From Octopus vulgaris (taxonomy: Eukaryota): 64,000 bases of DNA. The notes under the pieces were generated by a model, which searched no databases, was not told the origin of the DNA, and saw nothing but the letters and a program-made list of their open reading frames with translations. The translations under genes and the position numbers were made by a program. Each line of letters starts with the position of its first letter. Position 1 is the stretch's first letter. The stretch lies in assembly GCA_951406725.2 (NCBI GenBank), contig OX597814.1:26102001-26166000 (forward strand), read 5' to 3'. Below are positions 3,409-56,006 of this stretch, piece by piece.

Positions 3409-3711
3409 GTATACTTTATATGCATATTAATGTTGATATAATATCTATTAATATAACTACCAAGATTATGAAACAGTTGTAAACTAATGGAATAAACATC
3501 TATTCAATCACCTCACTTCTCTTATATGTTTTATTTGTATGCATTTTCCTCTATTGTATCTCCTGGATTTTCAAAACAATGTGAAGGTTAATCCTAACAT
3601 CAATTACAGTCATTCTTGTTAGCTACACACTTTGAAGAGAGCTTAATTTGAGATCTGTTTGATGCTTCAAATCTCTGTGTTTCTTATATGCATATACATA
3701 CATATTATATA

Positions 3712-4275
3712 TGTCCATTTTCCCCTATTTTTCTCTCTCTTGCCCTCTCACTCGTATTTGTAGCCTTTCTTCTTCTCCTTTTCCCTTTCATATCTTCTGT
3801 TATTTTCTCTTTATTTTCTCTCTGCCACACTCTCCCCCTTTCTCCTCTAACACATGCTAACACATGACCCATGGCCAGCTTTTCTTCATTCTCTTCCTTT
3901 TTCACACCAGCTGCCCAGCTATTCAGTCACAAAAAATTTTTCCTCTTGCTATTTCCATATACTTTAGGATTTCTTTTAACTATTACTCATCATTTTTGTT
4001 GTTTTGGCCCAAAGGCTGTATTTTGCTCGTTTCCTATTTATTTCGTCTTTGTCCATCATCTATCTTAATTATAGTTTTTTTAACTTTTGTATATCCATTC
4101 TGTGATGATTTGTTTGCTTGTGGCTTGACATTCTCTGCAATTTTCGCAGGCACCACCAATATGGGAAGTTCCCAGTCTTATCATTAATGGTGCGAAACTG
4201 AGTATTACCATTTTGGTTGATAACTGATGAAGAATTAGGGATCCTCTGTGTCTGTCTCCCATCTTGTTGTTCTCT
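3712..4275 (+). mobile_element. Pyrimidine-rich non-coding repeat (probable PLE-related) with permuted hammerhead-like core
   Basis: Shares tgctaacacatgacccatggccagcttttctt with the minus strand of 57241-57815 (tgctcacacgtgaccatcgcccatctttctt). GAAA at 4194-4197 and CTGATGA at 4224-4230. Starts next to a TA-rich tract. Confidence 0.45.
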
Positions 4276-4597
4276 CAGTAAAAAGCACCAACTGAATGTG
4301 GTTGATGCCAGTACCCGCTGACTGGCTCTTGTGCTGGTGGCATGTAAAAAGCACCATCCAAACGTGACCGATGCCAGTACCCCTGGCCTGGCCCCTGTGC
4401 TGATGGCATGTAAAATGCACTCACTACACTCTCGGAATGGTTTGCATTAGGAAGTGTATCCAGCTGTAGAAACAATTTCCAGATCAGATTGGAGCCTGGT
4501 GCAGCCTCCTGGCTTCCCAGATCCAGTCAAACCGTCCAACCCATGCTAGCATAGAAAATGGACGTTAAATGATGATGATGATGATGATGATGATGAT
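4276..4597 (+). mobile_element. RTE-type 3' UTR with short tandem units and (GAT)n tail
   Basis: Repeated ctgtgctggtggcatgtaaaaagcacc units, then the shared tail and (GAT)n. Confidence 0.8.
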
Positions 4598-4598
4598 G

Positions 4599-25600: not shown

Positions 25601-26772
25601 AATATATATATACGTGCATGTGTGTATGTATGTATGTATGTATGTATGTATGTATGTATGTATGTACAACTGAGTACTCTTAGCACATTGCTTGCTCTTA
25701 GAATGTAGTCCTCACATTCAGCTGTAGGTATATTCTGCAAGGAAAAATTAAAATGCTTTCAGCTTAGATAGGTTGCCATCATTCTCCTTCTCTCTGATGT
25801 GAAGGTCATCATATTTAGTCATATTCCTCTATCTTCTCCTTATTATTATTCCCATTGTCATCATCACAATCATTACTGCCACCAACAGTACCTCACTAAC
25901 TTCCAGTGAACATTGGTTTTTTTTCTTCTTTTTATTATTATAATCAGTTACACAAACAGCTGGCACTATATTATTGTTTTCCTTGTTATTTCTGTGGTGT
26001 TGATTTTGTGTTGTTATTTTCCTTATTCTGTGCCTCTCTTCTATTCAACGTTATTCCTTTCAAATTCGTATTAAATATTGCTTCTCAGTAATTTGATTGA
26101 GATCAAAGTGTATTTATCTGCTCTTATAAGCTTAATATCTAATAAGGATTCTATTAAAGACCACAGATATTAAACAGATATGCAGAACAAAATGATGAGT
26201 TATAGGTTAGCAGTATTACAATTTTTTCAGGATTCAGACTATCTTTCATGTGGCTGTTGTTATTTAGCTCTGATACAATCCTGATTGAACAGACTTTATA
26301 TTCAAGGGCATTCCAGCCATGACTATCTCATATTTTTCCTATGTAATAAAAACCCAGGGCTACATTATTCAACAGGTCTTTTCAAGGACACTAAGTTGTT
26401 ATTTAAATGAGATTCGGTTATTATTCCTAAAAGAGTGAATGACAACATTTAGGCTACTTCATTGGTTTCTCTCACATGGAAATGTAATAGCTTGATTACA
26501 GCCTAAAACCGAAATCAGTACCAGAGCAAAACAATAAACAATTTGATGTTTACAGATATATTTTTAGATACTTTCTATTTCACCATTTTAAAATTTCATT
26601 TATTTTCTTAAATGTTCTTTTTTGTAACATGTCAGTCAGGTTTTACCAAAATACACACACACCAGCAAAATATTAAAAAATGCAACCTATGAACAATTAT
26701 GTTATGTATGCTACTTCCTCTACATCATTACTAGACTGAATTTATTTGTATTTTATTATTTACAAAACACAA

Positions 26773-36129: not shown

Positions 36130-37624
36130 GTCTCATTGATTACTACAGTTATGAATGAATAAATTTATTGAGTTATATCCATGTGTATTCACTCTAGCCC
36201 ACGAAATTTAGCTCATGTGAATCCTAATTTGTAGAACACATATACTCCAATACGTAAGAAGGAAACATTGAAAAATCACTCCTACATTTCCTTTGTCTAT
36301 TGAATTAATACATGAAAAGTGCATTGTTAGTACTACTCAAACAACCAGCCTAGTCTAAGGGCTGTAACTATCATAAATTTCTGCTCACTCAATCAGATGA
36401 AATTTTAGATAAAAGTTGATGATAAATTAATATTTTATTTTTATTTTTTAATAAATTACTTTGATATATATAATATTTTGTAAATTAATACAAGGCAATT
36501 AATTAATACAAATTAATTTTCACATGTATATGAACAACACACACATATACACACACATTGTATGTGTGTGTATGTGTGTGAACATATACGTTTGCATATA
36601 CTAATTTCAAATATTAACATTTTTTGAAGTGGAAGAGATAATTTTGCATAAGGCAAATCAAAACAAAACAAAAAACTATGTTCAAACCCTTAATGAGCTT
36701 ATGGGTAATGACAAGAAAATTGATGATTATCATAAATATCAGCTGGCAACCAGCCAAAGATAAAAGATGAGCTAACAGTTCACCTTTTATCTTTTATATA
36801 ATAAATCTTAACAAGATTTGTTTTTTTCCTTTAAATATCTCACAATTTTCAAAGAAACAATGAAATGCTTCATATAAAATGATGAACTTATTGAAATGTG
36901 CATTTTCATAAACCAGCTAAATGTGGTAAAAAGAAATAATTGCTGAAGCTGTTGAGAGAATTGATTAAGAGGGATTTGAAGTTAAAGTATACAGAGTACA
37001 GCCATAGATAAAAATATTCAAAGTGATTAACAAGCATATTTTACATTTCTACATTAAATTTTGCAAATGTTCTCTGCAGGATACTGGTCAATCATCATCA
37101 TCATCATTCAACATCTGCTTTCTGTGCTGGCATGATTTAGATAGTTTGACTGGAACTGGTAAGTCAGAGAGCTGTACTAGGTTCCAGTCTGATTTGACTT
37201 GGTTTCTACAGCTGGATGCGCTTCCTAATGCAAACTACACCAAGAGTATTGTGGATGCCTCTCATGTGTCACTGGCACGTGTACCTTTTATGTGTCACCA
37301 GCACAGGTGCCTTTTATGTGTCACAAGCAGGGGTGCCTTTCATGTGTCACTTGCACCAGTGCCTTTTACTGAGAACAGTTGTGAAAATTTATTTTATGAT
37401 TACAGTATAAAAAATTTTTACTCATGCTTACATGTTTATTAATTCAGAACTTCTCCCACTTTCAATGGTGTGCATGATGGTGAGTACAAGACTTTCAGGA
37501 TGGGGTGCCAGTCCTTTGCAGACTCAAACTCCCATCTGTTGCTGGTACTTATTTTCAGCAGTGTGGACTGGAGCAATGTGAGTCTTGCTCAATGATACAA
37601 TTTGCTGCCTATATCAGGAATCAA

Positions 37625-38605
37625 ACCTGCTGCCTTGCAAAAGGAATGTGCTTTCATCTGGGTAACATGCACATTGTGAACTGGGGTGCTATCTTGGAGG
37701 AGGTGGACTCCTTTGGTCAGCATGCCATGCCTCTCTGCTTTGACGGCATCCCACAATTTCTGCAACAGAGAAGCATAATATGCCCCGTTAATTGTGGCAC
37801 CCAGAAAATCCATCATCACTCCTCCGTGCTGGTCCCAAAAGACTGTGAGCATCATCATGCCTGCTGAGAGTTGGACACAAGCCTTCTTTTGGAGGTGGTG
37901 AGTTATCATGCTTCCATTGCTTCGACTTGATCTTTGTCTGGGATCATATTGGTGGACTCATGTTTCATGCGGTGTGATAAGTTTGCTGAAAAAGTCCTCA
38001 TTTTCTTGGCACATTGTCAAAAGAGCCAGGGAGTAATTGACTCATTCCAGCTTCAGAAAAGGTGTGGGCATCTGGGGAATCCATCGTGCAGACAACTTCT
38101 GCACGTGCAACTGTTTGTGAATTATTTTTTCCTTGGACCTTACACTTATCTTCACTTATTAGGCTAGTTGCTATATAGTTATGTGGTGATCCTCCAAAAT
38201 GGTAGCTCCTACTTTATGGATGGTGTCCTCATCAATTGCAGAATGTGGTCATCCAGGAATAGAAGCAGTTTTAACCAATGTCTGACCACATTTGAACTGG
38301 TGATATCTGCTCTTGACTACATCATATGATGGTTCATCGTCACCATAACCTTCTTTCATCTCACTGAGAGTCTCTTTTAGTAATTGACCTTTATAGTATA
38401 AGAATCTGATCACTAATCTGCATTCAACTACCTCCATTATAACACCTTAGTTCACTTCAGCAGTTGTAAAAGACAAACTAATACTAGTAGAAAGCTGCAA
38501 TTTACAATGTGACGTGTAGAGACATGTATGATTATACTTGTACAAGTTCCATTTCCTGCAATAATCAAAAGTGAGTCAGAGGAAATCTTTAATGAACACT
38601 CCTTG
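37625..38605 (-). mobile_element. Mariner-family transposon, 3'-truncated
   Basis: TIR (ta)caaggagtgttcattaaag at 38605. MEVVECRLVIRFLYYKG...; SAGMMMLTVFWDQHGG...TINGAYYASLLQKL...LLQDSTPVH. Confidence 0.88.
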
Positions 38606-52032: not shown

Positions 52033-52275
52033 CAGCGTACGTACACTTTGTTCTCTTATATCTGAATGTAATAGCTGAATGATGGCAGTACAGCCAGAAG
52101 TTGATAGCCCTAATCCTCTTGTTTATATTTGCTTTTGTATTGAGATTTTGCCCCTCCATATTTTAAAGAGGTCTTAGGCCATCAGGTCTTGGAGTCTGAT
52201 GATACGCCATAAAGTTAAACCCTTTATGGACGGGAAACTCAGGGTAAGCCCATAAACCAGCCTTCACCAGAAAAA
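52031..52275 (+). mobile_element. ~245-bp non-coding element with two tandem hammerhead motifs, between (TA)n tracts
   Basis: Motif 1 (52075-52110): CTGAATGA tggc agtaca gcca GAAG ttga TA gccc. Motif 2 (52196-52250): CTGATGA tacg ccataaag ttaaacc ctttatgg acgg GAAA ctcaggg TA agcc. Confidence 0.7.
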
Positions 52276-54094: not shown

Positions 54095-55181
54095 GGTGTG
54101 AGAGGAAAAATTAAGTCATAGTTAGTTTCGATGTGATACAAAATAGAGAGTGAGGTGGAGGAAAGAAAATAGATGTAAGATATGTATGGGTATTGAATTT
54201 GTAAATCCACTTTATAGGAATAATGGTATATATGCAATATTCCAATATCCTTTGAGTAAAATCCAAAAGTCCAACAGAGTTTAATATGAGTCCTTCCAAA
54301 TATAGAGTATATAAGCAATGTAAGATTCCATTATGAGTGAGATCCAGCAGATTTTTAAACTTGGTCATTCCCAGTAGGGAATTTATATACAGTGTTGTAG
54401 AGTCAAGGTTTATATTTAAAATGACCTAGAAATAGGGAGTGTATTAGTATGGTTACATTGAAAACAGGAAGAGAGAAATGAAATAAAGAGAAAAAAAGCG
54501 AAAAAGAGGAGAGAACAAAAGAATAAAAGAGAAAGGAGAGAGAAGATTAGTAAAAATAACAAAATGATAAAAAAAATTAAAAAATAAAGAATAAAAATCC
54601 TGAAGATATGAATAAAGGGAATAAAGAAAAACGAAAAAAGAAAAATTAAGGTATAGATCAGTCAGTGGTCAGTGGAGATAATTTGAAAGTAGAAGTGGGG
54701 ATAGAGAGAGAAAGGTATTATAGTGTAAAAGATAGAGGAATGGGGAGGTTTAAGAGATAGAGGAAAGACCAATGTATAGTAGTATCTTCTAATTGTGAGG
54801 CAAAGATATGAAGAATTAAGGAAATAGCAGTTCAGTGTTTAGTAGTCTGAGAAAATATATATGTGAAGATGCATATACATGTATACATCAGATAAGTTAC
54901 ATATACAATCCTTATTCGCATGCGTATGCTCTCATACACGTTCGCTTATACACTCATCTGCGTGTATCATTGCCCCTGCATATGCAGGTATATATACCTT
55001 GCAAGTGTACATATGTTTACATATACCCACATGCATGCATATATGCATACCCTCACTCGTACTTATATACACATGCATGGGTGTGTGCTCGTACATATGA
55101 ATATAATCAGATGGTTGTATATGTGAGAAACTAGACAGGGATTATGAGTTAGAGTGTAAATTTATAGTTTAATGGGATTAC

Positions 55182-55592
55182 CTAAAAATTATTGCGGAAA
55201 TGTACTGTATGGTCATTCTGGCATTTGAATTTGTGGTAGAATTTAAATGTGTGGTAACAGCGGTGGTTGCATGTGCTTAGTGCCTCGTTATGCTTATTAA
55301 GCAGTGTTGGAGAGTTGTGCTTTAATATTTGAAGTGCCTCCTTCAGGCAAAGCTTGCAGATTGAGCGTTGACCTTGGCAGGGAAGTCCTGAGTCCAGTAT
55401 GGACCATGATAGGGTATAGGGTATATTTGCATTTTTGAGATGATGTATGTGGTTGGTGAATGTTGTAGATTTACTATGTTTATCGTATCTAAAAGAGTGG
55501 AGATGAGTGGCATATCATTGCTTAAAATGCTTTGTTGATTCTATGTATATGGCTGTAGCATTGTGTAATAGGTTAAGGACCGTGCATTTGTA
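55182..55592 (-). pseudogene. PLE GIY-YIG endonuclease domain (one in-frame stop)
   Basis: YKCTVLNLLHNATAIYIESTKHFKQ*YATHLHSFRYDKHSKSTTFTNHIHHLKNANIPYTLSWSILD...CKLCLKEALQILKHNSPTLLNKHNEALSTCNHR. Confidence 0.88.
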
Positions 55593-56006
55593 GGGCATAC
55601 GCATGTGAATAAGGATTGTATATGTAACTTATCTGATATATACATGTATATACATCTTCATATATATTTTCTCAGACTACCAAACACTGAACTACTATTT
55701 CCTTAATTCTTCATATCTTTGCCTCACAATTAGAAGCTACTACTACACATTGGTCTTTCCTCTACCTTTTAAACCGCCCCCCATTCCTCTATCTTTTACA
55801 CTATAATACCTTTCTCTCTCCAGCATGACCACAGTCAAATGACTGAAACAAGTAAAAGGATAAAAGAATAAAAAACTATATATGCACACACACACACACA
55901 CACACATACACACATATATTTATGTGTGTGTGTGTATGTGTGTGCATGTGTGTGTGTGATGAATATGTCATGATGTTATGAATTATGTAACTTAGTTATC
56001 ACAGTT
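55592..56006 (+). repeat. Composite inverted duplication (of 54704-54932 and 53444-53624)
   Basis: 55592-55820 is the reverse complement of 54704-54932, and 55818-56006 is the reverse complement of 53444-53624 (microsatellite part differs in length). ctc is shared at the junction. Confidence 0.9.

Follow-up and report, generated by a model that had tools for sequence, protein, structure and literature searches.

The locus analyzed here raises the question of how hammerhead core letters that occur in a permuted order, with GAAA ahead of CUGAUGA, may be wired into a self-cleaving RNA within an animal repeat. The letters lie in a 64-kb window (the whole stretch of DNA that was analyzed), and the original prediction assigned them to a type II hammerhead that cuts after position 4204. 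The reading preferred here, to which we give a probability of roughly 0.8, is that 4120–4245 forms a hammerhead of the pseudoknotted, non-circularly permuted kind near the 3′ end of what is likely a Naiad-type Penelope-like element, with a predicted cut after C4177 of a GUC triplet.

The motif is carried by a 5′-truncated copy of a high-copy repeat at 3672–4277 on the plus strand, likely a Naiad-type Penelope-like 3′ untranslated tail, which lacks an ORF. The bounds of this copy were taken from depth in runs X1 and X13, which exceeds the unique level from the bin 3672–3693 to about 4280. Judged from depth and sequence in this one copy, its start at ∼3672–3716 sits in an AT-rich dinucleotide stretch. 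The family was viewed through contigs from four public runs on 3650–4295 at 80% likeness, and the stretch was wholly or partly present in 20 of the 24 runs listed, which belong to 11 studies; none of the runs containing it was listed as RNA, although X9 may be of that kind. In run X1 the summed contig depth, which is not a copy number, rose from 35.7 in a unique contig to 61,308 at 4222–4243. The claim that a hammerhead-like RNA with GAAA before CUGAUGA, unusual for an animal, is borne on a repeat was judged to be right. As depth peaks at 4178–4265 in all four runs, no other part of the family is as widely shared as the core. Other members run past 4280 into a T-rich tail in the contigs of the public runs. 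The present copy is ended by a SINE-like repeat (4278–4598, plus strand) that lies outside the ribozyme and resembles over 15 further stretches of the window, which is animal DNA with many microsatellites and SINE-like repeats of cephalopod appearance. No second copy of the 3672–4277 repeat was found within the 64 kb. The two overlapping frames of the copy gave no convincing Pfam match, by which a protein-coding reading of 3861–4187 or 4069–4446 was ruled out, and six-frame translation of the whole window gave no convincing reverse transcriptase motif. Naiads are marked by an ORF with an N-terminal GIY-YIG endonuclease, a CxC linker and a C-terminal reverse transcriptase, by interspersed 5′-truncated copies that prefer (TA)n insertion sites and by a pseudo-LTR or partial tandem arrangement. 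The ribozyme anatomy, the 3′ position and the AT-rich site, rather than an ORF, make it likely that 3672–4277, a single 5′-truncated fragment, belongs to a Naiad-type Penelope-like retroelement.

Several other features were observed in the window. A truncated U2 snRNA copy at 26077–26192 (plus strand, 53 bits) was the sole match in an Rfam gathering scan of the window and is probably a pseudogene. A fragment of a Mariner-type transposase occupies 37589–37957 on the minus strand (Pfam Transposase_1, E 1.8e-11). At 52196–52246 (plus strand), CTGATGA, an 8-bp hairpin, GAAAC and GTA follow one another as in a type I hammerhead, but stem I pairs poorly; this may be a decayed ordinary hammerhead. 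A minus-strand frame at 55182–55514 (region 54704–55820), for which no Pfam match was obtained, is by eye like the endonuclease tail found at the C-terminus in Hydra-clade Penelope-like elements; it is flanked by a 231-bp inverted repeat with 93.5% identity and resembles an inverted truncated copy.

The letters of the type II proposal are present where it placed them (GAAA at 4194–4197, GTA at 4202–4204 and CTGATGA at 4224–4230), and TTACCA at 4205–4210 does form five of six pairs with TGATAA at 4218–4223. The stem II that it drew from the flanks did not hold up, since in the core register only four of 11 pairs form, beginning with an A·C; one extra A raises this to eight of 11, yet the second pair is then mismatched. 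In the type II wiring the stem I duplex has an energy of +1.0 kcal/mol, against −2.8 kcal/mol for the alternative, and the whole fold reaches +7.1 kcal/mol; type II stems I and III have a pair probability of 0.0 in the unconstrained nested ensemble. The type II pattern itself (GAAA, a 2-bp stem III, NUH, stem I with five of six pairs and CUGANGA) is not above chance, as it was found without stem II in 31 of 150 whole-window dinucleotide shuffles and in 880 of 20000 local core-fixed shuffles. The proposed comparison with Rfam returned no Hammerhead_II or other hammerhead in 3900–4500 at E ≤ 10, the two weak matches both being unrelated, and folding of 4181–4241 was no better than that of shuffles (z −0.21). 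When the majority letters of the family were placed on the type II model, six of the seven differences were unpaired and the remaining one, at 4242, broke a stem II pair. Type II membership, judged by the G-S-C order, hairpin stems III and I and a stem II open at the core, was not supported. The predicted cut lies instead after C4177, 27 bases upstream of the GUA cut, where better stems are formed with the same core letters. A type II form with a 59-nt insert and a cut at 4204 was replaced by the wiring through the upstream GUC block, and a decayed type I hammerhead built on the stem 4150/4193 was ruled out because there is no CUGANGA upstream.

In the preferred model, six helices, all on the plus strand, are defined by sequence complementarity (P0, hairpin A, II, L, III and I), and the order of elements is P0, A, the 5′ strand of II, the 5′ strand of L, the site block, the GAAA block, the 3′ strand of L, the 5′ strand of I, CUGAUGA and P0. 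The closing helix P0 is formed by 4120–4134 and by 4231–4245, which directly follows A9; 4130–4134 and 4231–4235 form five of five pairs, and distal pairs are restored or strengthened by majority letters at 4121, 4125 and 4126 on one strand and at 4242 and 4244 on the other. Hairpin A (4135–4149), with four contiguous pairs, is a predicted fourth junction arm and directly abuts P0 on one side and stem II on the other; a C–G pair in a loose-end line of run X13 takes the place of a T–A pair in the window. The 5′ strand of stem II (4150–4154, with G10.1) stands upstream instead of after A9, and all five of its bases pair with 4189–4193, the GGTGC preceding GAAA, with a duplex energy of −6.9 kcal/mol. 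Helix L links the far ends of stems I and II through nine of ten pairs between 4155–4164 and 4208–4217, and its assignment rests on pairing together with probabilities of 0.67–0.92 for 4155–4164 in the unconstrained ensemble.

The site block (4171–4183) comprises the 3′ strand of stem III (4171–4176), the GUC triplet (4175–4177) and the 3′ strand of stem I (4178–4183), so that the predicted cut falls between 4177 and 4178. It is joined to stem II by a five-nucleotide linker, TTAAT (4184–4188), and by eye the same TTAAT precedes the stem II strand in Naiad_Amil and Naiad-2_Movir. The GAAA block (4189–4202) holds the 3′ strand of stem II (4189–4193), G12-A13-A14-A15.1 (4194–4197) and the 5′ strand of stem III (4197–4202); it is retained in the loose-end lines of X1, X8 and X13, with an A at G12 in the X1 line. 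The truncated CUGAUGA block (4218–4230), which lies at the family depth peak in four runs, consists of the 5′ strand of stem I (4218–4223) and C3-U4-G5-A6-U7-G8-A9 (4224–4230). In stem I, TTATCA at 4178–4183 and TGATAA at 4218–4223 form six of six pairs. Stem III (4171–4176 with 4197–4202) has five of six pairs, or all six with the family majority letter: the mismatched position, 4172, is T in 70–90% of depth and then pairs with A4201. The hammerhead core is complete (C3-U4-G5-A6-N7-G8-A9, G12-A13-A14, A15.1–U16.1 and H17, with U4176 and C4177), and stems I and III flank the predicted cut site, as the hammerhead class requires. One feature of the class is absent, namely a stem II that joins the base after A9 to the base before G12; the base before G12 pairs upstream (4150–4154), and the bases after A9 pair with 4130–4134.

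A descriptor of this split form, drafted after the sequence of 4120–4245 had been seen, found this site alone on both strands of the window. It occurred in none of 150 whole-window shuffles and in four of 20000 core-fixed shuffles; 29 of those 20000 contained stems I and III by themselves. A minus-strand ribozyme was ruled out, as the descriptor found none. In the unconstrained nested ensemble, helices L and III have pair probabilities of 0.5–0.92, mismatched positions aside, and stems I and II, hairpin A and P0 have probabilities of 0.0–0.09. The low values of stems I and II are expected, because both cross L and III, and those of P0 and hairpin A arise because a competing helix pairs 4141–4149 with the core; the best nested fold of 4120–4245 hides CUGAUGA beneath 4141–4149. 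Nested folding of this region was no better than that of shuffles (z 0.15).

The family letters were also compared with the model. Between 4109 and 4250, seven differences between the family majority and the window were listed, of which six bring back or stabilise a pair of the model and the seventh falls in the hairpin A loop; of the 426 possible single changes, only 20 would improve a model pair. The helpful changes include that at 4172 in stem III and a double change at 4121/4244 in P0. These differences come from the 40 rows listed of 183, so that minor pair-breaking changes may be hidden in the rest, and the support for distal P0 is not independent, because its register was drawn from the same majority letters that were used as the score. 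The loose-end lines, with an agreement of only 0.56–0.80, suggest a subfamily in which stem II and hairpin A are each changed on both strands, although for stem II the two strands come from different runs. Compensatory letters were seen in the family majority and, by eye, in six sets of Naiad sequences. Some X13 contigs, one each, switch strand at 4163, 4176 and 4179 against 4210–4212, near the predicted cut, and may represent inverted truncated copies. Searches beyond the family returned seven loci with the core pattern in viral contigs, none with the stems, and no match to the family pattern in metagenomes. The nematode-type CSG pattern was matched by one viral and 94 metagenome stretches, and none of 94 matches scored had all three stems.

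Naiads are said, in the available text of PMC8557442, to be without canonical hammerheads, eight of them being flagged HHR_half_core and none being reported with a complete hammerhead. The 3′ ends of 52 of the 54 Naiad consensus sequences in the supplement of that paper (the last ∼350–480 bases) were surveyed by eye. Nine of the 52 have the order seen in the window: Naiad_Amil, Naiad_Aacu, Naiad_Anas, Naiad-2_Movir, Naiad-3_Chem, Naiad_EuTe, Naiad_Obim, Naiad_Ovul and Naiad_Esco. They amount to six independent sequence sets with differing stem letters, since the Amil, Aacu and Anas sequences are near-identical (Aacu having one mismatch in I and one in II), as are Obim and Ovul. For stems I, II, III and L, respectively, the pairs counted by eye were 6/6, 6/6, 13/13 and 9/9 in Naiad_Amil; 5/5, 6/6, 10/10 and 5/5 in Naiad_EuTe; 6/6, 6/6, 5/5 and 5/5 in Naiad_Ovul; 6/6, six with one bulge, 7/7 and 7/7 in Naiad_Esco; 4/4, 5/5, 5/5 and 7/7 in Naiad-2_Movir; and 5/5, 4/4, 5/5 and 8/8 in Naiad-3_Chem. 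The NUH triplets of the six sets are GUA, UUC, GUA, GUU, AUC and AUA, and each N pairs to 15.2. As in the window, P0, the hairpin and stem II are consecutive, separated by no more than one unpaired base, in Amil, EuTe, Ovul and 2_Movir. Naiad_Esco is without hairpin A, P0 of Naiad-3_Chem lies beyond the bases examined and Naiad_Bfor fits in part, with a stem I of 2 bp. We take Amil to denote a coral, Movir a box jelly, Chem a hydrozoan, Bfor a ctenophore and EuTe a clam shrimp. The supplement table (PMC8557442) names the species behind Obim, Ovul, Esco, Nbra, Hpol and Smim.

Other orders of the same blocks were also recognised in these 3′ ends. A complete type-CSG hammerhead with an unbroken CUGANGA block was found in six nematode-named entries (Naiad-1_Nbra, Naiad-2_Nbra, Naiad-3_Nbra, Hcon, Hpol and Asuum), the stem letters of which differ with pairing kept in full by eye; natural CSG sequences number only two in the available text of PMC10085705. 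The SGC order was found in Naiad_Smim and Naiad_Ptep, both of which have an L helix and extended stems I and III; stem II is ∼3 bp in Smim and was not clearly made out in Ptep. In the remaining 34 entries no complete hammerhead was recognised by eye in the part examined, and four of these (1_Dst, 2_Dst, 4_Dst and Sdum) show core letters with a wiring that was not made out. Motifs that look twister-like by eye occupy the corresponding 3′ position in Naiad-1_Movir, Naiad-4_Chem and several bivalve-named entries, which suggests that Naiads may swap ribozyme classes there. Naiad_CGi, Sglo, Olur, Tgra, Pmar, Skow and Pfla have in common a well kept 3′ motif of ∼60–80 nt without hammerhead core letters, which is a candidate structured RNA.

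Among described hammerheads, the closest relatives of the model are the non-circularly permuted type-SGC and type-CSG forms (Eckert et al., 2023; PMC10085705), which cleave in vitro and need the I–II helix according to the available text. The locus shares with type-SGC the order of the site block (4171–4183), the GAAA block (4189–4202) and the CUGAnGA block (4218–4230), stems I and II as pseudoknots, all core letters, a helix L that joins the far ends of I and II (nine of ten pairs) and a five-nucleotide linker from I to II. However, its CUGAnGA block is split: stem II has its 5′ strand ahead of the site block, a closing helix of its own takes up the chain after A9, and hairpin A gives a predicted four-way junction. 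The window hammerhead would function in the manner of type-SGC but, because an unbroken CUGAnGA block is absent, it was not filed as SGC. It also differs in being an animal genomic repeat, whereas the cases in the text available of PMC10085705 are metatranscriptomic, metagenomic and, in one instance, bacterial, with no animal or retrotransposon case mentioned. The same text assumes that the block of CUGAnGA and stem II cannot be interrupted.

Like the HHR_half_core Naiads (Craig et al., 2021; PMC8557442, as far as available), the window motif lies near the 3′ end of a 5′-truncated repeat that adjoins an AT dinucleotide stretch. The helix order is by eye that of Naiad_Amil, EuTe, Ovul/Obim, 2_Movir and 3_Chem, and of Esco minus hairpin A; the tail sequence differs by eye from the octopus Naiad consensus sequences, and the window copy has no ORF. 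With type II hammerheads (Rfam Hammerhead_II; Perreault et al., 2011, PMC3088659, seen in part) the motif has in common GAAA before CUGAUGA and an open stem II side, but type II hammerheads have hairpin stems I and III and a site placed after GAAA and before CUGANGA, whereas here the site lies upstream of GAAA and both stems are long-range. The type I hammerheads of Penelope/Poseidon, Neptune, Hydra and non-LTR retrozymes share the 3′-end or pseudo-LTR position in a Penelope-like repeat. They run from CUGANGA through stem II and GAAA to a tiny stem III and the site and often cleave as dimers, such minimal dimer-cleaving hammerheads being typical of Penelope-like elements in the accessible part of PMC6765202; the window model has a full stem III and does not need a dimer. 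Within the accessible parts of the open literature, which included PMC6155905, PMC3088659, PMC6765202, PMC13725137, PMC10162972 and bioRxiv 10.64898/2026.07.22.740005, neither a permuted Naiad hammerhead nor a split at A9 was found to have been reported. Hammerhead variants `containing additional helices' are mentioned in PMC13725137 (three references) and may bear on the junction. An A9 that is not followed by stem II would be without precedent in the literature examined, and the sequences point to what is likely a new hammerhead topology in animal retrotransposons.

Three other explanations have to be weighed against this model. The helices could be conserved without cutting, or with cutting that depends on protein, the RNA being a hammerhead-derived signal for reverse transcriptase binding or packaging or being held off by pairing of 4141–4149 with the core. 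The best nested fold does pair 4141–4149 with 4224–4233, the PAc hammerhead showed no cleavage when protein was absent (PMC11167929, in the part available) and the split link between A9 and 10.1 has no precedent in the literature consulted. We nevertheless consider this explanation unlikely: the majority C at 4141 weakens the helix that buries the core, and the window and six independent Naiad sets alike retain all core letters and an NUH with the N–15.2 pair. This retention argues against a purely structural role, for which such letters would be superfluous.

It is very improbable that the RNA is a type II (G-S-C) hammerhead that cuts after 4204 with a minimal, near-palindromic stem III, perhaps as a dimer. 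The letters permit a 2-bp stem III, GUA and five of six pairs in stem I, dimer-cleaving minimal hammerheads are typical of Penelope-like elements (PMC6765202, as accessible) and the stretch after GAAA is retained in the family. Apart from the missing stem II at the core, the unfavorable energy of +7.1 kcal/mol, the pair probabilities of 0.0 and the frequency of the pattern by chance, this stem I loses its first pair to the A that X1 and X8 carry at 4205 in their loose-end lines, and the examined tails of Naiad_Ovul and Naiad_Obim have no usable NUH there. Still more remote is chance pairing in an AT-rich repeat, with the core letters as leftover halves of two type I hammerheads in a partial tandem. 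Penelope-like elements do form partial tandems (PMC8557442, in the part available), Rfam is blank for a hammerhead and the folding z-scores are near 0. However, CUGANGA does not occur ahead of stem II within range, nor does GAAA follow CUGAUGA there; furthermore, the descriptor controls, the majority letters that favor the pairs and the recurrence of the order in unrelated sequences all count against chance.

If 4120–4245 is wired as a split, pseudoknotted hammerhead, L and III would form the nested backbone and stems I and II would cross it as pseudoknots, rebuilding a normal core around C4177. The four-way junction would replace the link from A9 to 10.1, so that stem II, with its usual G10.1–C11.1 pair, may stack under A9·G12 and P0 may stack on hairpin A. 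The split form could then be regarded as a further opening point on the ring of blocks that is common to the CSG and SGC Naiads. Its role would be the cutting of tandem transcripts of the element at a fixed pseudo-LTR point, which would set the ends of each unit. The cleavage products would be kept joined by P0, II, L and III, and re-ligation or circle formation would therefore be favored. In the available text on the Poseidon PAc hammerhead, cleavage depended on protein, and insertion in vitro did not require it (PMC11167929). The window copy itself is decayed: stem III contains a C·A mismatch, the distal part of P0 is weakened and the alternative that buries the core is strengthened. Owing to this decay at several helix positions, it may be less active than its family and may be slow or dead.

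Taken across the family, we think it likely, with somewhat less assurance than for the locus itself, that Naiads of several phyla carry active pseudoknotted hammerheads, of type CSG in nematodes and SGC in spiders. The cnidarian, crustacean and cephalopod elements, including the family in the window, would represent a seventh permutation, in which the backbone opens within the core, at the point where stem II would otherwise follow A9, and a three-way or four-way junction closes it. These would be the first non-circularly permuted ribozymes in eukaryote genomes, with a topology that was earlier assumed to be impossible, and the stated assumption that CUGAnGA and stem II are inseparable would be broken. 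The absence of canonical hammerheads in Naiads was taken, in the available text of PMC8557442, to indicate that ribozymes may be no more than parasites of Penelope-like elements. Many Naiads would instead keep a hammerhead in a wiring that is invisible to standard descriptors and to Rfam, which would explain the reported absence. Self-cleavage at the 3′ end would then be the rule across Penelope-like elements, and non-circular permutations would move from environmental RNAs into animal genomes.
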